NCBI GenBank assembly: GCA_965228735.1
Contig: OZ245838.1
Span: 6,720,001-6,784,000, forward strand
DNA length: 64,000 nucleotides
Source of the DNA: Planctomycetota bacterium
GTDB taxonomy: Bacteria > Planctomycetota > UBA1135 > UBA2386
Direction of reading: 5' to 3'
The notes beneath the pieces are model-generated. The model saw nothing but the letters and a program-made list of their open reading frames with translations. It made no database searches and was not told the origin of the DNA. The position numbers and the translations under genes were made by a program. Positions 31,723 through 55,240 of the stretch are shown one piece after another; the stretch's first letter is position 1, and each line of letters starts with the position of its first letter.

Positions 31723-33279
31723 TCAGAAGCGCAGCGTCTCGATCGTCGGGGTCGTCGTCGTCGCGTCCTGGCCGCCGAAGAGGATCAACGTGCCGTCGGG
31801 CATCACGGAGGCCGCATGGCCCGAGCGCGGCGCCGTGAGCGCCGGGGCCGCGGCCCAGGTGTTGGTCGTCGGATCGAAGATCTCGACGTCTGCGATCGAC
31901 GTCGGCGCGGTCAGCGTGCCCTGGGCGCCGCCGCACACCGCGACGTTGCCGTTCGGCAGCAGGCTGGCCGAGTGCAGGCCGCGCGCCGTGCTCATGTTGA
32001 CCGCGCTCCAGGTGCCGCCCGGGGTGTAGACCTCGGCGCCGCTGATCGGCGCGGAGTTGGCTGCGCCCGTGATACTCGGAACGAAGATCCCGCCGCTCAT
32101 GAGCACGCGGTCGTCGCCGAGCGTGACCTGGTTGTAGTGGTGTCCGGCGCGGCCCTGGCTCATGCTCGGACCGTTGGTCCAGCTGTTGCTGCCGGGGTTG
32201 TAGAGCTGGACCGAAGTCGTGCTCATGGCCGAGACCGGAATGCCGAAGAAGAAGCCGACCTCGACGCCGCCGCTGACCATCACGAGGCCGTTGCTCAGCG
32301 TCGTGAGGGCGGGCGCGAGGCGGTTGCCGCCGATCGCGGGCCCGCCGCTCCACTGGCCCGTCGCCGGGTCGTAGATCTCCGTCGACCGCAGCGTGTTGGT
32401 GATCGCGCTCAGCACGTCGGCGAGCGTCGAAGTGCCGCCCGTGACCATCACGCGGCCGTCGGGCAGCCTCGTCGCCGCGTGCAGGATGCGCGGCGTGTTC
32501 ATCGCACCCGTCGCGGAGTAGGTGTCCGTCGCCGGGTCGTAGATCTCGCACGAGTCGAGCACGCTGCCCGTGCTGTCGGCGCCGCCGATCAGCAGCACGC
32601 GGCCGTCGTCGAGCCGGACCGGCAGGTGCAGCGCGCGCGCCGTCGTCATCGCGTTCCCCGGTCGCACCGCCATGCGGCGGAAGTCCCAGACCTCGGTCGT
32701 CGCGAGCCCGACCGCGCTCGTCAACGTGCCCGAGCCGCCGCCAGCTACGATGAAGTCGCCGGCGCCCGCGTTGTTGTCGCGGTCGAAGAACCCGGCGCTG
32801 AACGCGCGGGCATTGAGCAGCGAGTCGCGCGCGAGCAGGCCGGTGGCCGGCAGCGATGTCTGGGTCACGACGTCGTTGCTGATCTCGCCGACGATCGTCG
32901 GGCCGCTCACCGGCAGCGTCAGCATCTGCCAGTGGAAGACGAGGTCGTCGAGGCTCGCGAGGTTCGGCAGCGCGAGGGAGTAGTTGCCCGAGCCGGCGCC
33001 CGTGAGGGTGAAGATCCACGCCGCGGACAGCTCGGTGCCGACCAGCACGGAGCGCGGATCCGCCGGATCGACCGCGGACAGCGCCGTCGGGCCGCCGGTG
33101 AACGACGCCATGATCACGGCGAGCGTGTTGGCCGTCGTGCCGTTGTAGGCCAGGTCCTGGCTGCTGCCGAGCGTGCCCGGCGTCGTCTTATCGAGGTCGA
33201 AATCGCCCTGGGCGACCGCCGGGAGAGCGAGCGCGAGCGCGAGCGGCAAGGTGAGGGCGGGGGGGAAGTTGCGGATCAT
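31723..33279 (-). CDS. Secreted Kelch-repeat beta-propeller protein
   Basis: Signal peptide ending AVA-Q; repeats DGRVLLIGG..EIYDP, MNTPRILHAATRLPDGRVMVTGG. Confidence 0.88.
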   Translation of the reverse strand: MIRNFPPALTLPLALALALPAVAQGDFDLDKTTPGTLGSSQDLAYNGTTANTLAVIMASFTGGPTALSAVDPADPRSVLVGTELSAAWIFTLTGAGSGNYSLALPNLASLDDLVFHWQMLTLPVSGPTIVGEISNDVVTQTSLPATGLLARDSLLNARAFSAGFFDRDNNAGAGDFIVAGGGSGTLTSAVGLATTEVWDFRRMAVRPGNAMTTARALHLPVRLDDGRVLLIGGADSTGSVLDSCEIYDPATDTYSATGAMNTPRILHAATRLPDGRVMVTGGTSTLADVLSAITNTLRSTEIYDPATGQWSGGPAIGGNRLAPALTTLSNGLVMVSGGVEVGFFFGIPVSAMSTTSVQLYNPGSNSWTNGPSMSQGRAGHHYNQVTLGDDRVLMSGGIFVPSITGAANSAPISGAEVYTPGGTWSAVNMSTARGLHSASLLPNGNVAVCGGAQGTLTAPTSIADVEIFDPTTNTWAAAPALTAPRSGHAASVMPDGTLILFGGQDATTTTPTIETLRF

Positions 33280-33454
33280 GGGTGAGGTCAGGGTCCGGGC
33301 AGACCCGTACAGTATCCGAGATTCCCGCGGTCGGTGCGGCTCAAGTCGGCGGCTGGTCGTCCGAGAATGAGAACGGACCGGGCTTTCCCGAGCCGGCAGC
33401 CGTCGTTGGCGCCGGGCAGGACTCCGCCGCCCGCGGCTTTGCCGGGATGTCACG

Positions 33455-33961
33455 ATGGCCGAGGATTCGGTGCGACGGACGGAAGCGACCACGAGCCTGA
33501 ACGGCTACGGCTCCCGCGCGCCGGACGAGCACCGTTCGGGCAACCGCCGCGCCGCGCCGCCGGACGAGGTCGACGCGCCACCGAGCCGGGGCGCGGACAG
33601 CGTGGCCGTGCGCTCCGACTTCGTGGCCGCGCTGCGGCTGCTGCGGGAGCGGGTCCTGGCCAACACCCGGGACATGCTCGGGGTCGGCAGCGTCGCGGTG
33701 CCGAAATTCGCCGAGGTCGTCGGCGCGGAGACGACCGCGGCGTTCGTGTCGCGCCTCGTCTCCGACCAGAACCAGCTCGCGGCCCGCGGCGCGTCGGCCG
33801 CGCCGAGCGCCGTGCGCGTGGTCCTCAACGCGGCGTTCGAAGCCGGCAGTACGGAGGCCGCCGAGCTGCTCGCGGCCGTGCCCGACAGTGCCGCTGCGCA
33901 GGCCGCCGTGAGCGCGGCGCGCGCCGAGTTCGGGCGCCGCATCGCCGAACTCGATTCCTGA
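33455..33961 (+). CDS. Hypothetical protein
   Basis: ATG-initiated ORF with host-like codon usage filling the gap before the YchJ gene. Confidence 0.55.
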   Translation: MAEDSVRRTEATTSLNGYGSRAPDEHRSGNRRAAPPDEVDAPPSRGADSVAVRSDFVAALRLLRERVLANTRDMLGVGSVAVPKFAEVVGAETTAAFVSRLVSDQNQLAARGASAAPSAVRVVLNAAFEAGSTEAAELLAAVPDSAAAQAAVSAARAEFGRRIAELDS

Positions 33962-33985
33962 CGCGTCGCTGGTTAGGTTCTGGGC

Positions 33986-35216: not shown

Positions 35217-35302
35217 CCGTTGGGTGAACCCCGAAACCGACGATCTGGGGGCCTCGCTTTTGCCCGGGCAGACCCTATCGTTCGGAGCAACCCCAGCCCG
35301 AC

Positions 35303-35722
35303 ATGTCCGATCCGCACTCCAGCAAGCTCACCGAAGGCATCCGGATCCACGCGGCAGCGCAGTACCTGCCGCAGGAGTCGGAGCCGGAAAACCGTCGGTT
35401 CGTCTACGCCTACCGCATCACGATGACCAACGAGAGCGCGACCGGTTCGGTCCGCCTCGTGTCGCGCCACTGGCAGATCGTGGACAGCGAAGGTCGGCGC
35501 GAGGAAGTGCGCGGCCGCGGCGTCGTCGGCGAGTATCCGAAGCTCGCGGTCGGCGAGAACTACAGCTACGTGAGCTACTGCCCGCTCGCGACCAACTGGG
35601 GGACGATGGAAGGCAGCTACACGTTCGAGCGCGACGACGGTTCGCAGTTCGACGTCGCGATCGGTCGGTTCTTCCTCGTGCCGTCCGCGCCCGAGCTCGA
35701 GCTCGAGCAGCCGCAGGCGTAG
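35303..35722 (+). CDS. apaG: ApaG protein
   Basis: FVYAYRITMTN, LVSRHWQI, VRGRGVVGEYP, GTMEGSY. Confidence 0.95.
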   Translation: MSDPHSSKLTEGIRIHAAAQYLPQESEPENRRFVYAYRITMTNESATGSVRLVSRHWQIVDSEGRREEVRGRGVVGEYPKLAVGENYSYVSYCPLATNWGTMEGSYTFERDDGSQFDVAIGRFFLVPSAPELELEQPQA

Positions 35723-35769
35723 CGGTCGATCGCCAGATGTCGTCGGGCGCCCGCTATCGCCGGGCGCGT

Positions 35770-37464
35770 CTAACGTCTGGCCTCGTCGCGCAACGCGATC
35801 AGGTCCTTCATCACGTTCTGCAGCTCGCCCGCGTTCTGCTGACCGCCCGCGCCGCTGAACGCGTCGTGCAGCTGCGCATAGAGCCGGTAGAGCTCGCGAT
35901 AGACCGCGACCGCCGCCTTCCGCGGGCGATAGACCGTGCTCTTCGTGCCCGTCATCCGGCGCTGCGCCGCGGCCACGCTGCGAAACCGCCCGCCCGCGAC
36001 CGCGCCGCAGATCGCCGCGCCGAGCGCGCACGACTCGGCGGAGCGGCTGACCTTCATCGGGCGGCCCGTCACGTCGGCGTAGATCTGCATCACGAGCGCG
36101 TTCTTCTCGGCGATGCCGCCGCAGTTCACGATCTCCTTGACCTTGACCCCGAACTCCTCGAACCGGCGGATGATCGTCAGCGCGCCGAACGCCGTCGCCT
36201 CGATCAGCGCGCGGTAGATCTCGGCGGCGGTCGTGTGCAGCGTCTGGCCGACGATCAGACCCGTGAGGTGCGGATCGACGAGCACCGTGCGGTTGCCGTT
36301 GTTCCAGTCGAGCGCGAGCAGCCCGCTCGCGCCGGGCGCGAGCTTGGCCGCGGCGCGCGTCAGGCGAACGTGCGGGTCGCCCGCACCCTTCGTCGCGCCG
36401 TTCGTCGCGAGGTGCTTCACGAACCAGTTGAAGATGTCGCCGACCGCCGACTGTCCGGCCTCGAGCCCGTAGGCGTCGGGCAGCACCGAGCCCGGCACGA
36501 TGCCGCAGAGCCCCGGGATGTCCGGCAGCCTCTCGTCGAGCGGCCACACCGTGATGTCGCACGTGCTCGTGCCGATGATCTTCACGAGCGTGCCCGGCTT
36601 CACGCCCGAGCCGATCGCGCCCATGTGCGCATCGAGCGCACCGACGGCGACCGGGATGCCTGCTGGCAAAGAGGCGGCGTTGGCCATCTCGGTCGTGAGG
36701 TGACCGGCGACACGGTCGGACGGCAGCACCGCGTCGCCGAACGTGTCGGCGAAGCGCGGCAGCTCCGCATCGAGTCGGCGCAGGAACGCCTTCTTCGGCA
36801 GCCCGCCCCAGTCCGGATGGAACATCGCCTTGTGTCCAGCAGCGCAGACGCTGCGCGCGAGCGACTTCGGCCTCGTGTTGCCCGTGAGGAAGCCCGGCAC
36901 GAAGTCGCACAGCTCGACCCAGCCCGCGGCCGCCTCGATCACGGCGGGAGCGGTGCGGCGACAGTGCAGCAGCTTGGACCAGTACCACTCGCTCGAGTAG
37001 GTGCCGCCGCACTTTCGCAGGTAGCCGTCCTTGCTGCGCGCGGCCTTCTGCGTGATCTCCGCGGCGGCGGCCGCCGACGTGTGATCGCGCCACAGCCACG
37101 CGTGCGCGGCGAGGTTCTTGTGGAACCGGCGCTGTGACGTCAGCGGCCGCCCGTCGGCGTCGACGGGCAGCGGCGTCGAACCCGTCGTGTCGACGCCGAT
37201 GCCGACGATCCGGTCGGGCTTGAAGCCGCGGCGACGCGCTGCCATGCGCACGGCGGCCTGCACCGCGCGTTGGTAGCCGGTCACGTAGTCGGCCGGGTTC
37301 TGCCGCGCGAGGTTGGGGTCCTTGTCGTCGAGCAGGATGCCGTGCTCGCCGCTCTCGTAGTCGTGGGTGGCGACCGCGACCTCGCTGCCGTCGTCGAGGT
37401 CGACGACCACGGCGCGCACGCTGTTGGTGCCGTAGTCGAGGCCGATGGCGTAGTCGTTCTGCAT
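35770..37464 (-). CDS. araB: Ribulokinase (FGGY family)
   Basis: IGLDYGTNSVRA, GIGVDTTGSTP, GGTYSSEW, CAAGHKA, EAGQSAVGDIF, LDWNNGNRT. Confidence 0.92.
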   Translation of the reverse strand: MQNDYAIGLDYGTNSVRAVVVDLDDGSEVAVATHDYESGEHGILLDDKDPNLARQNPADYVTGYQRAVQAAVRMAARRRGFKPDRIVGIGVDTTGSTPLPVDADGRPLTSQRRFHKNLAAHAWLWRDHTSAAAAAEITQKAARSKDGYLRKCGGTYSSEWYWSKLLHCRRTAPAVIEAAAGWVELCDFVPGFLTGNTRPKSLARSVCAAGHKAMFHPDWGGLPKKAFLRRLDAELPRFADTFGDAVLPSDRVAGHLTTEMANAASLPAGIPVAVGALDAHMGAIGSGVKPGTLVKIIGTSTCDITVWPLDERLPDIPGLCGIVPGSVLPDAYGLEAGQSAVGDIFNWFVKHLATNGATKGAGDPHVRLTRAAAKLAPGASGLLALDWNNGNRTVLVDPHLTGLIVGQTLHTTAAEIYRALIEATAFGALTIIRRFEEFGVKVKEIVNCGGIAEKNALVMQIYADVTGRPMKVSRSAESCALGAAICGAVAGGRFRSVAAAQRRMTGTKSTVYRPRKAAVAVYRELYRLYAQLHDAFSGAGGQQNAGELQNVMKDLIALRDEARR

Positions 37465-37601
37465 GGGGCGCTCCGCAGTCCGGGCAACGGGAGCGCGTGG
37501 TCTAACCGTTCGCCGGCCCGCGGCAAAGGCCGCACCGGACGCGGCCCCGCCGGCAGGAGCCCGTTCTTGCCGCCGAAGGGGCGCCGAGCTAGCGTCGCCA
37601 C

Positions 37602-39131
37602 GTGCCCACGATCGCTCTCGGTGAACCCGTCCTGCCCCTGTCCGCGTTCGTCGCGATCGCACGCGGCGGCGCCAGGATCAAGCTCTCGCGCGACGTGCGC
37701 AGTCGGGTCAGGACCAGCCGCGAACAGGTCGAACGGGCGGTGGCCGGCGGCGCGACGATCTACGGGATCAACACCGGCTTCGGCAAGCTCGCGGGCGTGC
37801 GCATCCCCGACGAGCAGCTCGCGCAGCTGCAGCAGAACCTGCTGCTGAGCCACGCGACCGGCGTCGGCCAGCCGTTGCGCCCGGAGGTGAGCCGCCTCGC
37901 GTTCGCGCTGCGGATCCACAACCTCGCGATCGGCAACTCGGGCGTGCGGCTCGCGCTGCTCGAACAGGCGATGGCGTTGTTCGACAACGACCTGATCCCC
38001 GTGATTCCGTCCCAGGGCTCGGTCGGCGCGTCGGGCGATCTCGCGCCGCTGAGTCACATGGCGCTGCCGTTGATCGGGCGCGGTCAGGTGCACTTCGGCA
38101 AGAAGGTGATCTCGGGCAAGAAGGCGCTCGAGAAGATCGGTCGCGCGCCGCTCGAGCTCGCGGAGAAGGAAGGCCTCGCGCTCATCAACGGCACGCAGAT
38201 CATGACGGCGATCGGCTGCCTCGCGGTGCACGATGCGATGACGCTCGCGCGCGCGGCGGACATCGCGTGCGCGATGACGGTCGAGGCGTTGCGCGGCAGC
38301 GACCGACCGTTCGCGGCCCGGGTGCACGAGCTGCGGCCGCACACGGGGCAGATGGCGACGGCCGAGAACCTGCGCGCGCTGCTCGCCGGCAGCAAGATCA
38401 TGGTGAGTCACAAGGACTGCGAGAAGGTGCAGGACGCCTACTCGCTGCGGTGCGCGCCGCAGGTCCACGGCGCGAGCAAGGACGGCATCCGCTACGCGCT
38501 CGAGACGCTCGTGACCGAGGCCAATTCGGTGACCGACAACCCGCTCGTCTTCGACGGCGCGGACGTCGTCAGCGCCGGCAACTTCCACGGCCAGCCCGTG
38601 AGCCAGGCGCTCGACTACCTCGGCATCGCGGTGTCGACGCTCGCGAACATCAGCGAGCGCCGCATCGAACAACTCGTCAACCCGGACATCTCGGGCCTGC
38701 CGCCGTTCCTCGCGAAGCACCCGGGACTCGAGAGCGGCTTCATGATCCCGCAGGTCGTCGCCGCGTCGCTCGCGAGCGAGAACAAGTCGCTGGCGCACCC
38801 GGCGAGCGTCGACACGATCCCGACGTCGGCCAACCGCGAGGACCACGTGTCGATGGGGGTGACGGCCGCGCGGCACGCCGAAGCGATCGTGAGCAACGCG
38901 CAGAAGGTGCTCGGCATCGAGCTGTTGTGCGCCGCGCAGGGACTCGATCTCGGTGAGCAACTGCGGCCCGGTAAGGGCGTGCGGGCGGCGTATCAGGCGC
39001 TGCGCAAGCGCGTGAAGGGGCTCGAGGGCGACCGCTTCCTGGCGCCGGATCTCGCGGTTGCGGAGGAAGTCGTGCAGAGCGGGGAGCTCGTTGCCGCGGC
39101 GGAGAAGGCGGTCGGGGCGCTGGCGTTGTAG
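37602..39131 (+). CDS. hutH: Histidine ammonia-lyase
   Basis: YGINTGFG, GSVGASGDLAPL (MIO), KEGLALING, QDAYSLRC, GNFHGQP, EDHVSM. Confidence 0.95.
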   Translation: MPTIALGEPVLPLSAFVAIARGGARIKLSRDVRSRVRTSREQVERAVAGGATIYGINTGFGKLAGVRIPDEQLAQLQQNLLLSHATGVGQPLRPEVSRLAFALRIHNLAIGNSGVRLALLEQAMALFDNDLIPVIPSQGSVGASGDLAPLSHMALPLIGRGQVHFGKKVISGKKALEKIGRAPLELAEKEGLALINGTQIMTAIGCLAVHDAMTLARAADIACAMTVEALRGSDRPFAARVHELRPHTGQMATAENLRALLAGSKIMVSHKDCEKVQDAYSLRCAPQVHGASKDGIRYALETLVTEANSVTDNPLVFDGADVVSAGNFHGQPVSQALDYLGIAVSTLANISERRIEQLVNPDISGLPPFLAKHPGLESGFMIPQVVAASLASENKSLAHPASVDTIPTSANREDHVSMGVTAARHAEAIVSNAQKVLGIELLCAAQGLDLGEQLRPGKGVRAAYQALRKRVKGLEGDRFLAPDLAVAEEVVQSGELVAAAEKAVGALAL

Positions 39132-39258
39132 CGCCTCGGATGGGCGGGCGCCCCGGCTGCCCCGTGAGCGGGTAGGATGCCGGAGGTTTCGTGGACCCGT
39201 GTCCTGGGCAGCAGTCCGCTGCGCCGACCGGGCAATGGCGTTCGCGGCGGGTGAAGAG

Positions 39259-40527
39259 ATGAACGAACGATTCCTCGCGTTGATCGCGGTGTTGGCTGGC
39301 GTCCTTCCCGCGCAGCGGACCTGGAAGGTGAACTGCAACGGCGGGCCGGGTGTGGACTTCATCGACTTGCCGCCAGCTGTGGCGGCCGCGTCTCCCGGCG
39401 ACACGATCTTGGTGTATCACACGCCTGCAAGTTGTCCGACTGCTTCGAACTACACTGCCCCCCGAATCGACAAGGCCCTCGCTATCGTTGGCTTCATCAT
39501 GCCGGGGTCTCCGGGTAGCTCGACCCCAACGCGAGCGATTGTCGAGGGCGTGCTCGAGATCGGCCCACTGCCCGCCAACGCCAGTGTGACGGTCAGTAAC
39601 GTCTCAATCCTCCAACCGTCGATGTTGGCGTCGCCCATCGCTCATCATGGTATTCGAGTCCACGATTGTGTCGGGCGCGTCTTGCTTGAAGACATCTACT
39701 ATGGCGGCTTCGGGCTGACCAATTCCGTCATGGCGATCGAGCGCTGTGCCGACGTGACGCTCCGCGGCTGCCACTTCAGGCTCTCCGGCGAACCAGCGAC
39801 TTTCGTGGACTCGCGGGGACTTGTTACGTTCTCGCGCCTCGAGCAGCGTGGCCCCTTCTTCGGAGGCGCGCCGTACGCCTACACCGCAACCCGCGAGGCG
39901 CTGCTCGTGCGGCGTTCGGATGTCGCGGTGATCGGCAGCGTTCTCGACGGCGCGAACCGGGTGGCGAACTGGTTCCCGGCGCAGAACTGGGGGCCGCGTG
40001 CGGGGGCGGTTGTCGAAAGTGGCACGCTGTCCATCGGCCCGGCGACGTTGCTACGTGGCGGCTACGATGGCTTCGGTCAGACCTGGGGGTTCTACCTGCC
40101 GCAACCGAGTCAGGCGACGGTCTACGTCGACCCGCGCGCCACGCTCGACACCGTGCCGCTGTTGCCGACAACGACCCGCTGGATCCACGCGGCCTACCAC
40201 GACTGGCTCGTCGCCGGCGAGTCGTACAACGTCTCGGTCGCCGGCCCGCTCGGCAGTTGGGTGATGCTCGGCGTCGGTGCCCTGGCGCCACAGCCGGTGA
40301 ACGTCGGCTTCGGCATGCTCGCGCTCGACCCGGCCGGCGTCGCGGTCATGGGCCTGAAGCAGGCTGGCGGCTTCGGCTACGCGGACTGGACCGGAACGTG
40401 CCACGCGGCCGTGCCGGTCGGCTTCGCGCTCGGATTCCAGGCCGCGCTGCTGGCGCCGAACGGCGAGATCTCGATGTCGCTGCCGTCGCCGTTCACGGTG
40501 GGCTGGCCGCACGGCGTGCAGCCGTAG
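39259..40527 (+). CDS. Secreted protein, beta-helix-like N-region plus shared C-terminal domain
   Basis: Signal MNERFLALIAVLAGVLPA-Q; DFIDLPPAVAAASPGDTILV resembles a beta-helix cap. Confidence 0.7.
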   Translation: MNERFLALIAVLAGVLPAQRTWKVNCNGGPGVDFIDLPPAVAAASPGDTILVYHTPASCPTASNYTAPRIDKALAIVGFIMPGSPGSSTPTRAIVEGVLEIGPLPANASVTVSNVSILQPSMLASPIAHHGIRVHDCVGRVLLEDIYYGGFGLTNSVMAIERCADVTLRGCHFRLSGEPATFVDSRGLVTFSRLEQRGPFFGGAPYAYTATREALLVRRSDVAVIGSVLDGANRVANWFPAQNWGPRAGAVVESGTLSIGPATLLRGGYDGFGQTWGFYLPQPSQATVYVDPRATLDTVPLLPTTTRWIHAAYHDWLVAGESYNVSVAGPLGSWVMLGVGALAPQPVNVGFGMLALDPAGVAVMGLKQAGGFGYADWTGTCHAAVPVGFALGFQAALLAPNGEISMSLPSPFTVGWPHGVQP

Positions 40528-40646
40528 ATCGCCGTTCACCGACGGTGGATGGACGGGTCGATCGACGAGGATCCGACACCGCCGGCCTCGAAACGGGCAG
40601 TTCTGGCCGAGACCACAGGTGGCATGGGTTTCGCTACACTGGGGGC

Positions 40647-41984
40647 ATGCTCCGAAACGCCAGCCTGGTCGCGCTCTGCTTCTCCGGGATCGCTGTCGCG
40701 CAGTCGCCGCAGTGGCGGTCGCTGCCGGCGGTCAACTCGTTTCCGTTGTCCGGCGCGGCGATCACCTACGACCACCAGCGCGATCGTGTCGTCCTGTTCG
40801 GCGGCGCGACCGGTCACCTGCAGACGTCCTACCTGACGGAGTTCGACGGTGCCACCTGGGCCGCGCCGAACTACGGCAGCACGGTCTTCCCGACGCCGCG
40901 CGCCGGTCATCGCGTCGCGTTCGACGGCCGCCGCGGCGAGACGCTCATGGTTGGCGGTGGCGACCTGGGGCCGATCTACTTCACCGACACCTGGGTCTGG
41001 AACGGGGAGACGTGGGCGGAGCGATTCCCGCAGCAGTCGCCCCCGGTGGTCTTCGGCGGCTTCTCGTTGACGTACGACGAACGGCGCGAAGTCATCGTGC
41101 TCTACTCGGGCACGTCGGTGTGGGAGTGGGACGGTGGCAACTGGACGCAGCGCACGCTCGCGACGCTGCCGCCGCCGCGGAGCTACCACGCGGCGGCGTA
41201 CGACAACGTCTTCGGCCGCTTGCTGATCCACGGCGGGCAGACGGTGCCGTGGTCGAGTTCGTGGCAGTCGGACACCTGGGCCTACGACGGTGCGAACTGG
41301 CAGCAGTTGTCCGCCAGCGGACCGGCTGCCAACTACCCGCAGATGGCGTTCGACCGCGAGCGCGAGGTGGCCGTCGTCATGGCCGGCCTCGGTCCCACGC
41401 ACGAGTTCTCCGTCGCGACCTCGACGTGGCTCGCTGGTCCGAACGCGCCGACCTTCGGCCACCTGACGTTCGATCGACAGCGCAACCGCATCGTGCTGGT
41501 CGAGCCGCACAGCGGCAACGCCGGCTCCAACCCGGGGTCGACCTACGTCTACGAGACGCCCGGTCTGGCCGTTGCGCAGCCCTACGGGATCGCGTGCGGC
41601 AGCCCGGCGCTGATCGCCGAGGCGGATCCGGGCGCGCGACCGGTGATCGGCAACACCCTGGCCGTGCAGCTCGACAACGTGCCCGGCTCGGTCGCGTTCA
41701 TGTGCTTTGGCTGGTCGAGTGACAGCGTCCTCGGTCTGACGCTGCCGTACCGAATGGACGCCTGGGGGCTGCCCGGGTGCTGGCTGCTGCAGAGCGATGA
41801 CGCGATTACGCTGCCCTGCACGATGACCGGTGCGGGCACCGCGCGCTTCGACTTCGCGCTGCCGAACGCAGCCGGGTTCGTCGGGCTGCCGTTCTTCCTG
41901 CAGCCATGGGCGCCAGCGCCGGGTCTGAATCCTGCCGGCGCCGCGATCGGCAACGGCGTCGCCGTGACGATCGGCGCGTTTTGA
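40647..41984 (+). CDS. Secreted Kelch-like propeller protein plus shared C-terminal domain
   Basis: Signal ending AVA-Q; repeats YD..R..VLFGG, DTWVWNG, WEWDG, DTWAYDG. Confidence 0.82.
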   Translation: MLRNASLVALCFSGIAVAQSPQWRSLPAVNSFPLSGAAITYDHQRDRVVLFGGATGHLQTSYLTEFDGATWAAPNYGSTVFPTPRAGHRVAFDGRRGETLMVGGGDLGPIYFTDTWVWNGETWAERFPQQSPPVVFGGFSLTYDERREVIVLYSGTSVWEWDGGNWTQRTLATLPPPRSYHAAAYDNVFGRLLIHGGQTVPWSSSWQSDTWAYDGANWQQLSASGPAANYPQMAFDREREVAVVMAGLGPTHEFSVATSTWLAGPNAPTFGHLTFDRQRNRIVLVEPHSGNAGSNPGSTYVYETPGLAVAQPYGIACGSPALIAEADPGARPVIGNTLAVQLDNVPGSVAFMCFGWSSDSVLGLTLPYRMDAWGLPGCWLLQSDDAITLPCTMTGAGTARFDFALPNAAGFVGLPFFLQPWAPAPGLNPAGAAIGNGVAVTIGAF

Positions 41985-42090
41985 CCGAACGGGGGACGAG
42001 CGCTGTCGCTACCCGGATAGCCGGTAGCGCAGGCGCTCCGGCACGCTCGCGGGATCGTGGTACGATTGCGCGCTCTCCCGGTCTCACGCC

Positions 42091-43863
42091 ATGGCCCACA
42101 ACCGATTCGCCGCGTCCGCGGCCGCCGCTCTCATCGGCCTTTCCGCACTGCCGGCGCTCGCCGCGCAGTGCACGATCCACGATCTCAACTCCGGCGCAGC
42201 GGGCACCTGGCCGCAGTTCATCGTGCCCGCGTTCGGTCAGCAGCTCTACATCAACGCCAACATCGGCGGTGCCGGATCCGAACTCTACCGCTGGAATCGG
42301 GCGACCGGCTTTCAGCTGCTCGACATCAACCCGGGCTCCAACAACAGCAATCCGCAGTCGCTCGCCGCGGCGTGCACGCCGGTCGGGCCGCGGGTGTTCC
42401 TGAGCGCGCGCGGTGCGACCGGGGGGCAGGAACTGTGGATGACGGACGGCTCGCCGGCCGGCACGGTGCGCGTGCGTGACATCCTCCCGGGCAACAGCAG
42501 CTCCAACCCGACGCACATGTTCGCGGGTCTGGATCGCGTGTTCTTCCAGGCCAACGACGGCACCAACGGGCGGGAGCTGTGGTCGTCGGATGGCACGACG
42601 GCCGGCACCCAGATGATCCTCGACATCAACCCGGGTTCGGGCAGCTCGCAGCCCGACTTCCTCGCGCTGCTCGGCGGGCGCCCGGTGTTCACCGCGTGGA
42701 CGCCGACCCTCGGCCGCGAACTCTACATCACCGACGGCACCGCCGCGGGCACGATCCTGCTCGCCGACATCCGGCCGGGTTCGAGCTCGTCGTCGATCTT
42801 CGAGGCCGTGGTCCTCGGCGATCGCGCCTACTTCGCGACCGACGATGGCGTCAACGGCTCCGAGCTGTGGGCGACCGACGGCACGCCGGCCGGGACCGCG
42901 ATGCTCGTCAACCTCGCGCAGAACGCGGGCAGCAGCAGCCCGCTCGAGCTCACGAAGAACGGCGACGAGCTGTTCTTCGTCGCGACCGACGGCTTCACGG
43001 GCCAGGAGCTCTACAAGACGGACGGCACGCCCGCCGGCACGGTGCTGGTGAAGGACGTTCGTCCCGGCGCGCTGTCGTCGCAGCCGCGCGACCTGATCGC
43101 GTCGAACGGGCTGGTGTTCTTCTCCGCCGATTCGGTCGGTGGGGCGGGCCGCGAGTTGTGGGTCAGCGACGGCACGAGCGCCGGCACGGTCGAGATCGAC
43201 ATCAACCCGGCGGGCAACTCGTTCCCGCAGTCGTTCGTGGCGGTCGGCACCGGGGTCTGTTTCGCCGCGACCGACGCGATGGGGAGCGAGCCGTGGTTCT
43301 CGGACGGGACGGTGGCGAACACGTTCCGCGTGTGTGACATCGACCCGGGGGCCGGCAGCAGCACGCCGCAGAACCTCATCGTCGCCGCCGGGCGCGTCTT
43401 CTTCCAGGCGTCCGATCCGGCGCTCGGCAACGAGGTGCACGAGATCACGACGCCCGGCGCGCTCGCAGAACGGCGCGGTCACGGCGCGTTGCCGAGTCAT
43501 CCGGAGCTCGTGAGTCGCGGCGGTCGTGCGCCCGTCCTCGGCACCACGGTCGACCTCGATTCGACCGGGCCGGCGACCGGGCTCGGGGTCCTCACCGTGG
43601 GGTTCGGCAAGCTGCCGCTGCCGGGCACGCCGGGTTTGACCGTCGGGGCGTGTGACTGGACCGGTGTCACGAACAACACGGCCGTGGTCGCGGTCCTCGG
43701 GTTCGGGCCGACGTTCTCCTACGCGTTCGCGATCCCGAACGTGCCGGGCTACACCGGGCTCGATCTCGCGTTCCAGACGGTGTGGCTCGTGTCGGGGCAG
43801 ACCCCGGCCGTCGAACCGTCGAACGGACTGCAGCTCGTCCTCGGTGGACCCGTGCCGATGTGA
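42091..43863 (+). CDS. Secreted ELWxxDGT-repeat protein plus shared C-terminal domain
   Basis: Signal ending LAA-Q; repeats ELWMTDGS, ELWSSDGT, ELYITDGT, ELWATDGT, ELYKTDGT, ELWVSDGT with DIxPG. Confidence 0.9.
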   Translation: MAHNRFAASAAAALIGLSALPALAAQCTIHDLNSGAAGTWPQFIVPAFGQQLYINANIGGAGSELYRWNRATGFQLLDINPGSNNSNPQSLAAACTPVGPRVFLSARGATGGQELWMTDGSPAGTVRVRDILPGNSSSNPTHMFAGLDRVFFQANDGTNGRELWSSDGTTAGTQMILDINPGSGSSQPDFLALLGGRPVFTAWTPTLGRELYITDGTAAGTILLADIRPGSSSSSIFEAVVLGDRAYFATDDGVNGSELWATDGTPAGTAMLVNLAQNAGSSSPLELTKNGDELFFVATDGFTGQELYKTDGTPAGTVLVKDVRPGALSSQPRDLIASNGLVFFSADSVGGAGRELWVSDGTSAGTVEIDINPAGNSFPQSFVAVGTGVCFAATDAMGSEPWFSDGTVANTFRVCDIDPGAGSSTPQNLIVAAGRVFFQASDPALGNEVHEITTPGALAERRGHGALPSHPELVSRGGRAPVLGTTVDLDSTGPATGLGVLTVGFGKLPLPGTPGLTVGACDWTGVTNNTAVVAVLGFGPTFSYAFAIPNVPGYTGLDLAFQTVWLVSGQTPAVEPSNGLQLVLGGPVPM

Positions 43864-43891
43864 CGGCCGGCGTGCCGGCTCTCGCGTGGCA

Positions 43892-43921
43892 GCCTTGCGG
43901 TTTGAACCAGGTTCCGTACGG
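43892..43921 (-). repeat. Single-arm copy of the REP-like family (copy 3)
   Basis: 26/30 identical to 17762-17791. Confidence 0.8.
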
Positions 43922-43953
43922 CAGCGCTCGAGCCACCGTCTATCGTTGCCGGG

Positions 43954-46620: not shown

Positions 46621-46622
46621 TC

Positions 46623-47414
46623 GTGAAGCGCTTCAAGGAATCGCTGAAGGACGCCGTGCGCCAGATGGCGTATCGGACGTCCGTGGACAGCCTCAAGAAG
46701 CGCGGCGTCCAGCAGGTCAACGTGCTCGGCATGGACCGCATCGTCTCGCTCGTCGAGGCGGCGGTGCACAAGAGCCTCAAGAGCAGGCTCGTCGGCATGG
46801 AGCGCGAGGCGGTCGCGGATGCGACCAAGGCCGAGTTCGTGCGCCTGATGCGCAACAACGAGGATCTGCAGCGCGAGAAGAGCGAGATCGAGCAGCAGAA
46901 GGAGCGCGCGCAGGAAGAGGTCGACATCATGCGGCGCGAGATCGCGCAGCAGGAGCAGGCCCTCAAGACCCGGCTCGACGAGGGCGCGCTCGAGGTCGCG
47001 AGCCGCTACGAGGGCGAGAATGCCGTGATCGCGCAGAAGGTGGCGGACGTGATGCGTTCGCTCCAGAGCCAGGGCGGCCTCGCGGGGGCCGAGACCAAGG
47101 TCATCGAGCTCGTGATGGACATCGTCCAGGACGAGCGCAAGGAGGCCGAGGAGGCCCGGGCGGCGCTCCGCGACCGCGAGGTCGAGAACCTGCGGCGCCG
47201 GATCACCAAACTCAACGACTCGCTCGCGCAGACCGAACATCGGTTGCAGTCGGTGTCCGCGATGAAGAACATCGACGACGGCATCTCTTCGATCTACCGG
47301 GAGGTCCAGGGGCTCGACGCCTCGGACCAGCAGGCCGGCAAGAAGAAGGAGCTCATGTCCGAGATCTTCCGCGCCAACCTGGAGTTGCAGCAGAAGGTCA
47401 AGAGCCGGCAGTAG
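46623..47414 (+). CDS. Coiled-coil cytoplasmic protein
   Basis: E/K/Q/R-rich heptad pattern; starts 2 nt after the upstream stop. Confidence 0.8.
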   Translation: MKRFKESLKDAVRQMAYRTSVDSLKKRGVQQVNVLGMDRIVSLVEAAVHKSLKSRLVGMEREAVADATKAEFVRLMRNNEDLQREKSEIEQQKERAQEEVDIMRREIAQQEQALKTRLDEGALEVASRYEGENAVIAQKVADVMRSLQSQGGLAGAETKVIELVMDIVQDERKEAEEARAALRDREVENLRRRITKLNDSLAQTEHRLQSVSAMKNIDDGISSIYREVQGLDASDQQAGKKKELMSEIFRANLELQQKVKSRQ

Positions 47415-47479
47415 GCCGCGGGCAGACGCACACGCAGTACAGGCAGCAGCAAGACAGCAGGAACGCAGTAGGGAACAAG

Positions 47480-48559
47480 ATGACGGAATCGCCCAAGAGC
47501 CCGGAGACCGATTCTCCGGAGAAGGACCATGGCGTCCTCTACATCGGGATGGACCTCGGCACGTCGCGCACTTCGGTGTCGGCGAGCAACGGCGTGCGCG
47601 AGACGGTGCACTCCGTGGTCGGCTACCCGAAGGACGTGGTCAGCAAGAAGCTGCTGAAGCGCGACGTGCTGTTCGGCGCCGAGGCGATGGAGAAGCGCCT
47701 GTCGCTCAAGATGTACAAGCCGCTCGAGAAGGGCGTTCTCAAGTACACGGGCGACGCGGAGAAGGACGCCGAGGCCAAGGCCAACCTCAAGGCCGCCGAG
47801 GATCTGATCGGGGAAGCGATCCGGCTCGCGAAGCCGCGCCAGGACGAGCTCGTCTACTGCGTGATCGGCTGCCCGGCCGAGGCCTCGATGAAGAACCGCG
47901 AGGCGATCATCGAGGCCGCGCGGTCGCACGTCGATTCGGTCATGCTCTGCAGCGAGCCGTTCGCCGTCGCCTACGGCCTCGACTGGCTCGAGGACGTGCT
48001 GGTCATCGACATCGGCGCGGGCACGACCGACCTCTGCCGCATGCACGGCACGATGCCGGAGGACGCCGACCAGGTCACGTTCGACGTTGCCGGCGACGCG
48101 GTCGACCAGGCGCTCGACGCCGAGATCGAGAAGAACTGCCCCGGCGCCCAGCGCACCGTGCAGATGGTCAAGGAGATCAAGGAGCGTTGGGGCTTCGTCG
48201 GGGACGCATCGGAGCGCGCGATGGTCTCCCTGCCCGTCAACGGCAAGCCGACCGAGTTCGACCTCACGGACTCGATCCAGACCGCCTGCAAGATCCTCGT
48301 CGACCCGATCGTCGGCGGCATCCACGAGCTGGTCAGCTCGTTCGACCCCGAGTTCCAGAACAAGCTGAAGAACCGCGTCCTCCTCGCGGGCGGCGGCTCA
48401 CTCCTCAAGGGCCTCGACTCGGCGATCGAACGCGCCCTGCAGGAACGCCTCGGCGGCGGCAAGGTCATCCGCATCGAAGAACCGATCTACGGCGGCGCCA
48501 ACGGCGCGCTGAAGATCGCGCATGACATGCCGGCTGACTACTGGGAACAACTCAAGTAG
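47480..48559 (+). CDS. MamK-like bacterial actin
   Basis: IGMDLGTS, SVVGYPKDVV, SEPFAVAYGLD, IDIGAGTTDLC, EDADQVT..AG, IKE, AGGGS, GALKIAHDMPADYWEQL; recalled MamK motifs (SVVGYPKD, DIGAGTTD, EDQVTL, YW.QL) match. Confidence 0.88.
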   Translation: MTESPKSPETDSPEKDHGVLYIGMDLGTSRTSVSASNGVRETVHSVVGYPKDVVSKKLLKRDVLFGAEAMEKRLSLKMYKPLEKGVLKYTGDAEKDAEAKANLKAAEDLIGEAIRLAKPRQDELVYCVIGCPAEASMKNREAIIEAARSHVDSVMLCSEPFAVAYGLDWLEDVLVIDIGAGTTDLCRMHGTMPEDADQVTFDVAGDAVDQALDAEIEKNCPGAQRTVQMVKEIKERWGFVGDASERAMVSLPVNGKPTEFDLTDSIQTACKILVDPIVGGIHELVSSFDPEFQNKLKNRVLLAGGGSLLKGLDSAIERALQERLGGGKVIRIEEPIYGGANGALKIAHDMPADYWEQLK

Positions 48560-49655: not shown

Positions 49656-49698
49656 CGGGGGGAACGGCTGGGCCGTTCCAATGGGGGGGCTTGTGGTG

Positions 49699-52287
49699 TT
49701 ACCGCCCGACGCTGTTCACGACGTCCGTGATCTGCGCACGCACCATGACCATCAGGCTCTTGTTCTCGTCCACCGAGCCCTCCTGCTTGAACAGGAACGA
49801 GATCAGCGGCAGGCGCGCGAGCAGCGGGACCTCGGCGCGACGCTCCTTGGTCAGCACCTGGCGCAGACCGCCGAGCAGCACCGTGCCGCCGTCCGGCACC
49901 TTGGCAGTGGTCGAGAAGTTCGTGACCACGAGGTTCGGCAGCTGCAGCGTGACCGGCAGCGTCGAACCCGCGAGCGACGTGGTGAACGTCGGGATCGGGC
50001 GGGTCAGTTCGGCGACCGTCGGGTTGAGGTTGAGGATGATGTACTTCCGGTCCTGCTGGATGACCGGCTGCACGTCGAGCACGATGCCGTCCTGGATCAC
50101 GTCGACCTTCGGGTCGGCGATGAACGCCGCCTGCGCGACCTCGACGTCGAAGTCGCGGACGTAGGCCGTCTGGTTGATCACGGCGACATGGCCGCGCTCG
50201 CGGTTGAGCACCGAGAGGATCTGGCTGTTGACCATCTCGACGTCCTGCTGCTTCTCGACGGCGCGCAGGATCACGTTGAGCTGCAGGTCGTCGAGCAGCG
50301 TCCAGCCGGCCGTCAGACCGCCGGTCGGCGACAGCGCGCGGCTCAGGTCGTTGGCGAAGTAGTTCTCCGTGCGGCCGCGGATGTCACCGTCGCCGCCGTC
50401 GTTGAAGAACGCACCCGCGAGCGGGTTGGCCGCCGGATCGCCCGTGCCGCCGTTGTCGAGGCCGCGCGACGCGTTCGACTGCAGGCCGTTGGTCACGTCG
50501 TCGAGCGGCACGACCGTGCCCTTGTTGCCCGAGCCGCCGAGGCCGCGGATGTCGATGCCGACCTCGCTCAGGAAGTTACGCGAGATCGTCAGGAACTTGC
50601 TGTCGATCGTGACGATCGGCGTCGCGAAGCGGCGCATGTCGTTGAGCACCGTCTCGACCTGGGCCTGCATCTCCGGCGTCGCGGTGACCGCGAGGAAGCC
50701 CGAGTCCTCGGCGCGGATCTCGACGCCGTCACCGTCCCAGTAGATCGGGTCGGTCGCCTCGCGAACGTTGGTCACGAGGTCGGCGATCTCGATGTAGGAG
50801 ACCGGGTCCTCGCCCTCGCCACCCGTGCGCGGCACGTCGTCGAAGCCGTCCTCACCCGGGATGTCGCGGATCTTCGGCGGCAGGAACTGCGTGCGCTGGA
50901 AGACCAGGTCGCTGACCGGGTAGATCTCGGTCGTCAGCGTGCCGGCGGCCTGCGACTTGTCGCCGATCAGGATGACGCCGTTCTTGACCGTCCACGCCAG
51001 GTTCTCCGTGCGGTCGGTCATGTGGTTGAGGAAGTCGCGCAGCGTGACCGAGCCGACGAGCTCGATCGCGAGCACCATCGACTCGGTGTCGATGATGTCG
51101 CGCGCTTCCGGCGTCACGATGATCTGCAGCTGCGTGCGCAGGCTCAGATTGCGGATCACGTCGAGGTAGGCGCCCGTGTCCTCCGTGTAGGTCAGCTTGC
51201 CGACCTGCATCGTGTTGACCTGGTCCCAGACCGCCTGGTCCATCGGGTCCATGACGGCCGTCGTCGAACGGCGCGCCTTGCGGCCGTTGGCCCGCGCCCA
51301 GACCGCGAGGTCCATCTCGAGCACCGCCGTCTGCGGCACCTTGAGCTCCTCGTCCGCCTCCAGCATGCGGCGGATCGCCCGCGCGCGCTGCAGGTAGTAC
51401 TGCTGGTTGCTGTCCTCACGCGCGGCCTTGACCGCGGCGTTGTGCATCTCGGACGCGATCACGCTCGACGGATCGACGTCCTTCGCGCGCGTCGCGAGTT
51501 CTTGCGCGTAGGCGAAGCGCTGGTTCTCGAACGCCTTCTGCGCTTCGAGGATCAGCGCATCGTGCTGATCGCGGCGGCGCTTCTCGGCGGCCTCGTTCTC
51601 GGCGCGCAGACGCTCGGCGAGGCGGGCGCTCTCGGCCTCCTGGCTCGCCTTGACCTGCTCGTCGTAGAGCCCCTGCATCTCGTCCGTCTTGGCCGTGACG
51701 CGCTGCGGCAGATCCTGCCAGTCGACGAGGTCCTTGAGCTCGATGACCTGCGCCGCGATGCGCAGCTCCTCGAGCGCGCCGGCGTAGTCCATCGTGGCCG
51801 CGAGCTCGTCGGCCTTCTGCAGCTGCATCTCGACGTTGGTGCGCGCGCGGTCTTCGCCGATCTGGCGCAGACGCGTCTGCTCCTCGGCGAAGCTCACGAC
51901 CGTGCCGACCGGCTCACCGAGCTCGGCCTGCACGCTGATCAGCAGCTCGGCGATCTCGGTGTTGCCGGGCGCCATGCTCACCGCCTTCTGCAGCTCGCGC
52001 TTGGCCGCTTCGAGCTGGCCGCGCGTGCGCAGGGATTGCGCGTTGCTGACGTATCGCTCGACGAGCACCGCGCGGCGCTGCGCGTCGACGCCCTGCGGGT
52101 CCTGCGCCGCGCCACCGGCATTGCCGCTGTTGGCCATGCCGGGGTTGCCGCCCGTGTCGCCGCCAGGGTTGTTGGCCGCGGGGGTCGGGTCCGCCGGCTG
52201 CGGGTCGGCCGGCGACATGGAGCAGGAAGCGCCGAGCAGTGCGGCGATCAAAGAGACAGCGAGAAGGCGCGATTGTTCGAGGGCCAT
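49699..52287 (-). CDS. Secretin-like outer-membrane lipoprotein with TPR/coiled-coil N-terminus (paralog A)
   Basis: Lipobox LLGAS-C; N3-like LAVTATPEMQAQVETVL; C-domain DGIVLDVQPVI, VPDGGTVLLGG, VPLLARLPLISFLF. Confidence 0.85.
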   Translation of the reverse strand: MALEQSRLLAVSLIAALLGASCSMSPADPQPADPTPAANNPGGDTGGNPGMANSGNAGGAAQDPQGVDAQRRAVLVERYVSNAQSLRTRGQLEAAKRELQKAVSMAPGNTEIAELLISVQAELGEPVGTVVSFAEEQTRLRQIGEDRARTNVEMQLQKADELAATMDYAGALEELRIAAQVIELKDLVDWQDLPQRVTAKTDEMQGLYDEQVKASQEAESARLAERLRAENEAAEKRRRDQHDALILEAQKAFENQRFAYAQELATRAKDVDPSSVIASEMHNAAVKAAREDSNQQYYLQRARAIRRMLEADEELKVPQTAVLEMDLAVWARANGRKARRSTTAVMDPMDQAVWDQVNTMQVGKLTYTEDTGAYLDVIRNLSLRTQLQIIVTPEARDIIDTESMVLAIELVGSVTLRDFLNHMTDRTENLAWTVKNGVILIGDKSQAAGTLTTEIYPVSDLVFQRTQFLPPKIRDIPGEDGFDDVPRTGGEGEDPVSYIEIADLVTNVREATDPIYWDGDGVEIRAEDSGFLAVTATPEMQAQVETVLNDMRRFATPIVTIDSKFLTISRNFLSEVGIDIRGLGGSGNKGTVVPLDDVTNGLQSNASRGLDNGGTGDPAANPLAGAFFNDGGDGDIRGRTENYFANDLSRALSPTGGLTAGWTLLDDLQLNVILRAVEKQQDVEMVNSQILSVLNRERGHVAVINQTAYVRDFDVEVAQAAFIADPKVDVIQDGIVLDVQPVIQQDRKYIILNLNPTVAELTRPIPTFTTSLAGSTLPVTLQLPNLVVTNFSTTAKVPDGGTVLLGGLRQVLTKERRAEVPLLARLPLISFLFKQEGSVDENKSLMVMVRAQITDVVNSVGR

Positions 52288-52678: not shown

Positions 52679-54244
52679 TCAGCGGCCCGTCAGCTCGTCG
52701 AGGATCGCGCGCGAGCGGGGGTGGGCCTCGCAGACTGTTCGGTCGCGTCGGTCGCGCGCGTGTGGGTCGGCGCCCGCGGCCAGCAGCACGCGGACGACGG
52801 GCCGCGGATCGACGCTGCGCCCGCACTGGAACGCGTGGAACAACGGCGACGCTCCCGTCTTCTCGTCGGGTCGGTCGACGTCGGCGCCGGCGTCGAGCAG
52901 CGCGGCGACCGTCGCCGCGAACCCGGCCTTCGCCGCGAAGTGCAGCGCGGCGCGGCGCCAGTACGGGTGCACGCGGTCGGGGTCGGCGCCGCAGTCCAGC
53001 AGCGCGCGCACGTACTCGGCGTCGTCCTTCTGCGCGTGGTTGCCGGTGCAGCTCTGCCACTGCCAGCTGCTCCACGGGTCGGATTCGTAGTTCACGTCCG
53101 CGCCGTGCTCCAGCAGCAGCGGCGCGAGATCGCCGTCGAGCACCCAGCGGCCGCAGCCGACGCGGGTCGCGTCGGCGCCGCGATCGAGGAGTTGCCGCAG
53201 CAGCTCGGGGTCGGGGGCCTCGGCCGCGTGCCGCACGAGTTCGTGGCTGCGTTCGCCGACCGTGGCGCCGCGGTCGAGCAGAAGCGTTGCGGTCATCGGC
53301 TGGTCGTGCAGGACGGCATGGTAGAGCGGCGTCAGTCCGAGGATGTCGTCAGCCGGGTCGGGCGTCTCGAGCAGTTCGGGGTGGGCGTCGAGCCAGCGCG
53401 ACACGCCGATCCGATCGCCGAGGGTCGCGGCCGTGAAGATGTCGTCGCGCGCGCCGAGCTCGAACAGCAGCTCGGCCGCCGCGGTCTTGCGCTGCCGCAG
53501 CGCGCCGCACAGCGGGGTCGCGAGCGGGCCGCTCCAGTCGATCGAGGTCGCGGCCGCCGGATCGGCACCCGCTTCGACGAGAACGGCGATCACCTCGACC
53601 CGACCGCGCGTCGCCGCGAGGTAGAGCAGGCTCGGGCTGCCCCACGCAGGTTCCAGCAGTTGCGGTCGTTCGGCGAGTGCAGTGCGGATCGCGGCGACGT
53701 CGCCCTTCTTCGCGGCCTTGACCGCCGCGTCGTGGACCGGGTCCTTGCCGCAGCGATGGCGGTCGGGGTCGGGCGGGCCCGTCGGGTCCTCGTCGTTGAC
53801 GAACGCGGTCGCGAGCGGCCGCAGGGTCGCGTGGATCTCGTCGCGCAGATCATTCGATACGCCGGCCATTCGCAGCGCGCGTTCGAAGTGGCCGAGCCAG
53901 CGCTGCGCGTCGCGCGGCGCGATCCGCGCGTGGCGGTGGCGCAGCCGCAGCCCGGCGCGCGCGCGGTGGCGCGAGTAGAGCGGTTCGCCGCCGAACCACT
54001 CCTCGAAGAACATCACCTGGTTCTGCCGTTCGAGCGCCTGGTCGCGCCGGAACATCGGGCGCAGCACCGGGTCGTCGTGGATGCCGTCGTAGAGGCCCTG
54101 CACGATCCGAGCCACGGTCTCGCGGCCGCCGAGCCGGTCGAACAGCGCCGGGTCGGGGCGGAGCCGGTCGACCTGCAGGTGCAGGCCGCCGCGGTGGGCG
54201 AGGGTGGGGTGGGGGGCGTCACCCGCGGGGTGGGGTGGCATCAT
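52679..54244 (-). CDS. Truncated haemoglobin (group II-like 2/2 globin) fused to ankyrin repeats
   Basis: LFDRLGG..LYDGI..DPVLRPMF..FGGEPLY..LRLRH..RWL; then ankyrin repeats LVEAGADP, TPLYHAV, ALHFAAKAG, LLDAGADVD. GAGG SD before ATG 54244. Confidence 0.85.
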   Translation of the reverse strand: MMPPHPAGDAPHPTLAHRGGLHLQVDRLRPDPALFDRLGGRETVARIVQGLYDGIHDDPVLRPMFRRDQALERQNQVMFFEEWFGGEPLYSRHRARAGLRLRHRHARIAPRDAQRWLGHFERALRMAGVSNDLRDEIHATLRPLATAFVNDEDPTGPPDPDRHRCGKDPVHDAAVKAAKKGDVAAIRTALAERPQLLEPAWGSPSLLYLAATRGRVEVIAVLVEAGADPAAATSIDWSGPLATPLCGALRQRKTAAAELLFELGARDDIFTAATLGDRIGVSRWLDAHPELLETPDPADDILGLTPLYHAVLHDQPMTATLLLDRGATVGERSHELVRHAAEAPDPELLRQLLDRGADATRVGCGRWVLDGDLAPLLLEHGADVNYESDPWSSWQWQSCTGNHAQKDDAEYVRALLDCGADPDRVHPYWRRAALHFAAKAGFAATVAALLDAGADVDRPDEKTGASPLFHAFQCGRSVDPRPVVRVLLAAGADPHARDRRDRTVCEAHPRSRAILDELTGR

Positions 54245-54251
54245 GGCCACC

Positions 54252-55240
54252 TCACGAGGGGCCGATCACCGCGGTCGCGGCATCGGACAGGGCGGCGCCC
54301 AGCGCGTTGCCGGCCTGTGGATCGAGCACGAGCGCCTGCAGGTGCAGGGTCCAGCCGACGAGGGTGGGCGTCGGCGGAATCGTGACGGCGATGTCGGCGT
54401 GTCCCGCCGTGCCCTGAACGAACAGCATCACCTCCGGCGCGACCCGAAGCGTGCAACCGGGCAGGCCGAATGCACTGAGCTCGAGCGGGAGCGGCCCGAG
54501 GCCCGAGGACGTCGCGTCGGTGCCGAGCGCGACGATTGCCGCCGCGAGGGGCAGGTTGTCGATGCGAACGACGGCCGTCGCGCCGAGGCGCGGCGGCGCG
54601 CTGGCGGTGAGCGTCGCGCGCGGCAGGCTGCCGGCGCACCCGGCGCCCAACGTCTCGAACGACCCCGGACCGAGGATCGCCGCGCCCTCAGGATGTGGAA
54701 CCCATTGGCCGCGACGGAGATCGCCGTGTACTGCACGCCGGCGGGCAACGTCGGCACGGGGGTCAGCCACGTCAGGTTGCCCCACAGCGTGATGCTCCCG
54801 TCACTGCGGAGGCCGGCGGAGAAGCCGGACCCGGCGGCGACTCCGGTGTAGGTCAGGCCGGGCGGCAGGGCCGGGACGTCGCACTGGTGCGAGTGGTTGT
54901 ACCCCCACGCGAGCGCGACGCCGTCGCTGCGGATCGCGAGCGTGTGCCGGTAGCCCGCGGCCACGGTCGTGTAGGTCTGACCGGGCGGCAGCGGCGGCAC
55001 GAGGCATTGGCCCTCGCGGTTTCGGCCCCAGGCCACGAGCGTGCCATCGGGTCGCAGGGCGGCGGTGTGGAACCCGCCGGCCGCGATCGCCGTGAAGCTC
55101 TCGTCGAGCCACGCGTCGTTCGTGACGGTCTCGCCCCACGTGGCGAGGGTCTGGGCGGCGAGCCCGGATGCGAGGCCAGTTGCGAGGCCGGCTGCGAGGC
55201 ACGGCGCAAGAACTGCGGCTGCGGGGGCCCGCATCAGCAT
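54252..55240 (-). pseudogene. Frameshifted secreted RCC1-repeat protein with shared C-terminal domain
   Basis: Signal plus RCC1 repeats (AAGGFHTAALRPDGTLVAWG, AAGYRHTLAIRSDG) in one frame to ~54690; C-terminal domain continues in another frame to 54252. Confidence 0.75.

Follow-up and report, generated by a model that had tools for sequence, protein, structure and literature searches.

An uncatalogued domain on hundreds of proteins, most predicted to be exported, in a Planctomycetota genome: a candidate surface tether

Domain copies in the window and in the genome

We analyzed a 64,000-nucleotide stretch (the window) of a Planctomycetota genome, in which several genes for otherwise unrelated exported proteins carry the same domain of about 130 residues. 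The genome, which homologues from named organisms assign to Planctomycetota, is a single contig of 7.19 Mb with 69% GC and is 93% complete. A preliminary description of the window had claimed a segment common to five proteins. That claim stands for two Kelch proteins, one of which bears the segment at its N terminus, and for an ELWxxDGT-repeat and an RCC1-repeat protein; the tail of a beta-helix-like protein gives a borderline score, and the reading frame of the RCC1 gene is disrupted. The copies are as follows:

32857..33210, minus strand: domain copy at the mature N terminus of a Kelch beta-propeller protein (gene 31723-33279; profile hidden Markov model [HMM] E 2.7e-9, hhalign E 1.9e-5)
40200..40527, plus strand: probable copy, diverged and shortened, at the C terminus of a beta-helix-like protein (gene ~39235-40527; E 0.015-0.02)
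41568..41975, plus strand: domain copy at the C terminus of a Kelch protein (gene ~40647-41984; profile seed; copy modeled with AlphaFold2)
43459..43845, plus strand: domain copy at the C terminus of an ELWxxDGT-repeat protein (gene 42091-43863; HMM E 1.5e-17; TIGR04534)
54261..54665, minus strand: domain copy at the 3' end of an RCC1-repeat gene that has a frameshift and is internally shortened (gene ~54252-55240; profile seed, E 6e-32)

Only two of these tails, Kelch (41568-41975) and RCC1 (54261-54665), seeded the HMM, which was iterated over 61,526 six-frame open reading frames (ORFs) and recovered the ELWxxDGT and N-terminal Kelch segments without having been given either. It converged at 293 ORFs with 293 domains, one per protein and never in tandem, and the best reversed-ORF decoy had an E value of 0.025. 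With filters off, the domain was found in 343 of 5,481 called genes, 315 times at the C terminus, and in none of 5,481 reversed decoys. The figure of 343 is a floor, because many of the 57 remaining exported proteins that are low in lysine, glutamate, and arginine (K+E+R) have tails that look similar by eye. Carriers thus make up at least 6% of the genes. Their density in the window matches the background (4 called domain genes versus 3.05 expected, P 0.36), and the five window genes are a sample of some 340 scattered genes rather than a local cluster.

Individual window genes show how the domain varies. The Kelch protein at 31723-33279 has Kelch Pfam hits, a predicted signal peptide followed by Gln, and a domain copy that lacks the two cysteines described below; the same N-terminal architecture recurs in a distant genome, G185. 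The beta-helix tail scores at the level of the best decoy in the HMM search (hhalign E 0.12), but it is probably a diverged copy, because the only paralogue found has a recognizable domain in its tail (E 1.5e-6). The protein is also low in K+E+R, like other carriers. In the RCC1 gene, the frame changes near 54690, with an apparent internal loss, and the domain is read in a different frame from the signal peptide and the RCC1 repeats, which start from 55240; related RCC1 hits have open frames of about 720-1,390 codons. An error of the window assembly is unlikely, because contigs of three public runs, which may come from the same strain or source as the window DNA, span the stretch without a difference. 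Pieces of it also occur in one metagenome labeled coral. By-eye reading places three of the domain genes between hut genes, namely, histidine ammonia-lyase (37602-39131) and urocanate hydratase (43954-45603), with ApaG-like and ribulokinase-like genes also in 35303-45603. A scan of viral contigs with HutU yielded no hits and no information.

The domain family is large, with 32,703 representatives (clustered at 50% identity) matched by the profile, and neither Pfam nor NCBIfam, in the copies that we searched, catalogues it. For none of 75 domain copies scanned was there a Pfam or NCBIfam family better than E 0.02, a sequence search of the PDB gave no match (best E 0.09), and the 30 ESM Atlas clusters are unnamed, none with a common Pfam family. 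The literature searched, with subscription papers and bioRxiv supplements outside its scope, holds no description of the domain, and the available text of bioRxiv 10.1101/2023.06.07.544157 makes no mention of planctomyc-, dockerin, T9SS, or type IX. For a clade that is mostly uncultured, the profile would mark out the likely surface proteome in one step.

Several elements of the residue pattern first noticed in the window, among them a terminal S/T-N motif, are real. In a model of 131 columns, with a median pairwise identity of only 22%, the conserved positions include Gln107 (97%), Ser/Thr123 (96%), Pro94 (93%), Gly28 (89%), Gly7 (87%), and Gly101 (82%). Two cysteines, Cys10 (77%) and Cys67 (71%), covary: both are present in 169 copies, neither in 36, and only one in 18 (P 3e-25). 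Because of this covariation, the pair is suggested to form a disulfide. AlphaFold2, run on the window Kelch copy with a 75-row alignment, gave a model (pLDDT 94.1, pTM 0.87) of eight strands that is nearly all beta, with an insert region around residues 51-90, and the predicted fold is an immunoglobulin (Ig)-like beta-sandwich. In composition the domain is hydrophobic, with a mean hydropathy of +0.41 versus -0.07 in passengers and 0.2% Lys; columns 43-50, 57-64, and 102-111 are mostly hydrophobic with little charge.

Structural neighbors are generic, including Ig, FN3, macroglobulin, and glycoside-hydrolase accessory domains (best Z 8.7-8.8, rmsd ~3 Å over 89-95 residues). No C-terminal domain (CTD) of a type IX secretion system (T9SS), cohesin, or dockerin structure stood among the best 50 rows of either structural comparison. 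Foldseek returned nothing at E 0.001 or better. Its top rows were ML lipid-binding domains (NPC2, MD-2, GM2AP) and the hydrophobin BslA, which resemble the domain as beta-sandwiches with hydrophobic surfaces; at E 0.005-0.04, TM-score ~0.3-0.38, and rmsd ~11-12 Å, these rows are too weak to count as a structural match and give a lead only. One might read the generic neighbors, along with the flexible position of the domain within proteins, as marks of a binding module of the carbohydrate-binding, FN3, or PKD type, directed at an external substrate such as an algal or animal surface or a matrix polysaccharide and without any sorting role. We consider this quite unlikely. The domain never occurs in tandem within a protein of the window genome, its column profile lacks a conserved Trp/Tyr platform, and it is retained on 24 proteins in 2.3 Mb of G185; of the 121 genomes in the order, 120 have it.

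Carriers, passengers, and exchange with dockerins

Carriers are, by heuristic prediction, exported proteins. Of 295 carriers, 229 were called as having a signal peptide followed by Gln, against 669 of the 3,946 non-carrier genes of at least 200 amino acids (aa), so that the combination proposed from the window is common among carriers but not specific to them. A lipobox without signal plus Gln was called in 2 of 295 carriers versus 199 of the 3,946 other genes, and 290 of the 295 lack a later transmembrane helix. The N-terminal Gln is a genome-wide habit that resembles the Bacteroidetes Q-rule rather than a carrier-specific trait; Gln follows the signal peptidase I site in 17% of non-carrier genes, T does so in 11%, and E, D, N, H, K, or R in 2-6%. 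The parts of the Q-rule study available to us (PMC5837995) report experimental data that argue against a role in T9SS targeting and make no mention of Planctomycetes.

The passengers fall into 124 clusters, which, with the presence of the domain in nearly every genome of the order, bears out the idea of a lineage-specific module on varied exported proteins. Pfam hits were found in 40 of 75 carriers scanned (of 91 fetched), mostly beta-propellers and hydrolases: Kelch (16), Rax2/DUF5122 (8), peptidases (5), FG-GAP, cytochrome c peroxidase-like, and DUF7452 (2 each), and sortilin, sulfatase, beta-lactamase-like, SASA, and laminin G (1 each). Passengers have a median K+E+R of 8.0% (n = 324) versus 17.4% in 630 other signal-plus-Gln proteins. 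Passengers are thus compositionally distinct, as would fit a separate and probably extracellular class. A further hint of surface location comes from a 634-aa exported protein that ends in the domain, in both the window genome and G185, beside a conserved operon of ExbB, DUF3450, and a TonB-dependent receptor (4010286-4019087 of the window genome).

Position is biased but not fixed. Among the 295 carriers, 255 copies are C-terminal, 13 are followed by a tail of 30-45 aa, 12 are N-terminal, and 15 are nearly stand-alone; of the latter, about 8 consist cleanly of signal peptide and domain, and the others look like fragments. The same end position is taken by other modules in homologous proteins. 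For example, 54 of 120 ELWxxDGT homologues (query included) end in the domain, as do 13 of 15 from named Planctomycetota, and those with PF18962 (4, T9SS tail) or PF00404 (2, dockerin) all lack it. Other homologues end, by eye, in tails like transmembrane anchors. The domain therefore takes the same place in a protein as T9SS tails, dockerins, or membrane anchors do. The anchors include tails of the PEP-CTERM, GlyGly-CTERM, and MYXO-CTERM kind, which are likewise many-to-one C-terminal tags on surface proteins. These tags (PMC11980579, in part) consist of a short motif, a transmembrane helix, and a basic tail cut by an intramembrane protease, whereas here there is a folded domain and almost never such a helix. 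The window genome has one exosortase gene.

Across the phylum, 65 of 301 sampled genomes have the domain, 5 of which gave just one match. Genome G024, of family f10, contains an expansion of a sister form that is longer and richer in Cys (57 of 57 scored candidates) and is homologous to the domain (hhalign E 7e-5). Among the 120 best hits of this form, tails on different passengers are 58-75% identical, which suggests recent re-grafting of tails between passengers.

Expansions of the domain and of dockerins are mutually exclusive in the genomes searched. We compared 34 domain-rich, 5 single-hit, and 41 domain-negative genomes, a panel of 80 that includes kin and so is not a set of independent observations. 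None of the 34 domain-rich genomes exceeds 5 dockerin matches, and all five genomes in which 12-66 were counted are domain-negative. Within the order, the sole domain-negative genome is G015, which has 39 matches to C-terminal dockerins; no other member of the order has more than 2. In 20 stretches of G015 chosen for dockerin hits, there were 28 dockerin-ended proteins; 7 of them hit the window genome, and 6 of those 7 hits are domain carriers, with identities of 27-49%. Type I dockerins (PF00404), including non-cellulosomal ones of Planctomycetota, are thus like the domain in being a single terminal module on many exported proteins and in being swapped with it on homologous passengers. They differ in kind. 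A dockerin is a calcium-binding helical duplicate of roughly 60 aa, whereas the domain is an all-beta sandwich poor in acidic residues. Furthermore, cohesin (PF00963) had no hit in the window genome, and dockerin had none there or among the domain copies, with positive controls for both.

The direct exchange in G015 could mean that the domain docks onto a dedicated protein scaffold in the manner of dockerin and cohesin, possibly in the periplasm, so that carriers need not reach the surface. Non-cellulosomal use of cohesin and dockerin has been proposed for freshwater Phycisphaerae, as the "planctosome," in the available text of PMC6461901. Nevertheless, we regard such docking as very unlikely. 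In addition to the negative cohesin and dockerin searches, no repeated scaffold was identified in a search that was not exhaustive, and typical periplasmic proteins (DegP-like, PBP-like, cyclophilin, ApbE, NamZ, S41) are non-carriers.

Export machinery and proposed retention at the surface

The window also contains a twin-secretin cluster, and the preliminary description had suggested that carriers might be its cargo. The genes are as follows:

49699..52287, minus strand: secretin 1 of the twin-secretin cluster (PF00263)
55394..57332, minus strand: ExbD, ExbD, and ExbB (PF02472 twice, PF01618)
57605..64000, minus strand: two tetratricopeptide-repeat (TPR) proteins, then secretin 2, whose gene continues beyond the end of the window

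Secretin 1, often as one of a neighboring pair, has matches in almost all domain-rich genomes (33 of 34), in all 5 single-hit genomes, and in 36 of the 41 that are domain-negative, so it is conserved across most Planctomycetota searched. This phylum-wide presence, and the lack of enrichment of domain genes nearby, speak against a special tie between the domain and the cluster. The 949-aa TPR protein was matched in 9 of 80 genomes, the query being too divergent to profile. The twin-secretin system could still serve as the export route of carriers, and there are seven secretin genes in the window genome.

Searches for other machinery were mostly negative. PorV had no hits in the window genome (control positive), and neither did SprA or TIGR04183, for both of which the control search was also silent; one weak C25 peptidase gene is present, without T9SS neighbors. 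For a hunt across two genomes, about 2.3 Mb of G185 was translated, giving 333 reciprocal best hits among signal-like proteins of the window genome, 89 of which were scanned with Pfam and 20 unannotated ones inspected. An unannotated exported HExxH protein of 1.1-1.2 thousand aa (1321954-1325325 of the window genome), present in 21 of 34 domain-rich and 1 of 46 other genomes, is too patchy to be an obligate partner.

These results bear on whether the domain is an export signal like the T9SS CTD, that is, a folded tag that would be recognized by its own translocon in the outer membrane, possibly a secretin system, with or without later processing. The resemblance to type A CTDs of Bacteroidota (PF18962/TIGR04183) is considerable: one end domain with a predicted Ig-like fold (generic in its structural matches), hundreds of Sec substrates, the same passenger types, the same slot on ELWxxDGT homologues, and an N-terminal Gln as in the Q-rule (PMC5837995, in part). 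Furthermore, most copies are C-terminal, with one per protein, carriers are almost never lipoproteins, and recognition could rely on a surface made up of Gln107, Pro94, and Gly residues, all near-invariant. Yet, there is no sequence match, and the domain, with ~130 aa and a Cys pair, contrasts with a T9SS model of 72 positions. It also occurs N-terminally, inserted, or stand-alone, so that a strict CTD, cleaved and always terminal, fits poorly even though the analogy of position holds. In addition, PorV, SprA, and TIGR04183 were not found, the secretin cluster is not co-distributed with the domain, and no co-distributed beta-barrel emerged among the 89 exported proteins shared with G185. An export signal is in our view unlikely, if less so than the binding or docking roles considered above.

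The domain seems to act like a dockerin or a T9SS tail, yet it is a member of neither family. The explanation that we favor, and to which we give about an even chance, is that it is a retained tether by which enzymes and beta-propeller proteins, once exported, would stay attached to the outside of the cell. Carriers would be exported by Sec by way of the predicted signal peptide, leaving Gln at +1, and would fold in the periplasm with a Cys10-Cys67 disulfide. They would then cross the outer membrane, most plausibly by a secretin-based system, and attach without cleavage through a hydrophobic, nearly uncharged face and the insert loop, either to outer-membrane lipid or to neighboring copies in a surface coat. 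Surface location, the disulfide, retention, and attachment are what we infer. We prefer a tether to its rivals chiefly on account of the exchange with dockerin and of those copies that are N-terminal, inserted, or stand-alone. Of the 295 copies, 12 are N-terminal, 13 have a tail after them, and about 8 clean ones stand alone, which favors retention rather than cleavage.

Several points weigh against a surface tether. Signal peptides and lipoboxes were called by a home-made heuristic, not by SignalP. The low K+E+R of passengers could be explained by beta-rich folds rather than by location, and proteins of the di-haem peroxidase-like and sulfatase kinds are often periplasmic in other bacteria. 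The C-terminal bias also fits an export signal, and the insert loop may cover the hydrophobic columns. The two-genome hunt yielded no convincing partner, translocon barrel, or scaffold. Finally, the dockerin swap is one event in one genome, and 21 of the 28 dockerin proteins of G015 had no hit in the window genome. The assignment of G015 to the order is provisional: its GC is about 0.48 in the fetched stretches, and it has no match to the MamK-like actin described below or to a 1.2-thousand-aa protein of the clade.

More speculatively, the domain might be a position-independent tile, self-associating or lipid-inserting, that is exported folded, is interchangeable with dockerin, and builds a mosaic coat from 6-7% of the proteome. 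Such a tile would serve one large Planctomycetota clade as the handle for displaying proteins on the surface by a system not described before, a reading we hold as doubtful. If the domain is a tether, or an export tag with its own machinery, diderm bacteria would have a further, new way of displaying proteins. Cultured strains of the OM190 group (Saltatorellus, Engelhardtia; available text of bioRxiv 10.1101/817700) may allow tests, provided that they carry the domain.

Other genes of the window and genome

Near the C25 peptidase gene, 3582370-3592811 of the window genome holds, by eye, what look like VgrG-like, pentapeptide-repeat, and PAAR-like genes, a locus that may resemble a type VI secretion spike. 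Within the window, 52679-54250 (minus strand) encodes a truncated bacterial globin (PF01152) fused with ankyrin repeats. On the plus strand, a tyrosine-autokinase-like protein, a coiled-coil hypothetical protein, and a MamK-family actin stand in a row at 45856-48559. The actin matches NF040964 at 409.9 bits versus a cut-off of 400, and no cultured strain is among the 47 loci found with it. A MamK-like actin is reported for Saltatorellota in the text available from bioRxiv 10.1101/817700, and a relative with 78% identity occurs in a record labeled CL500-15.

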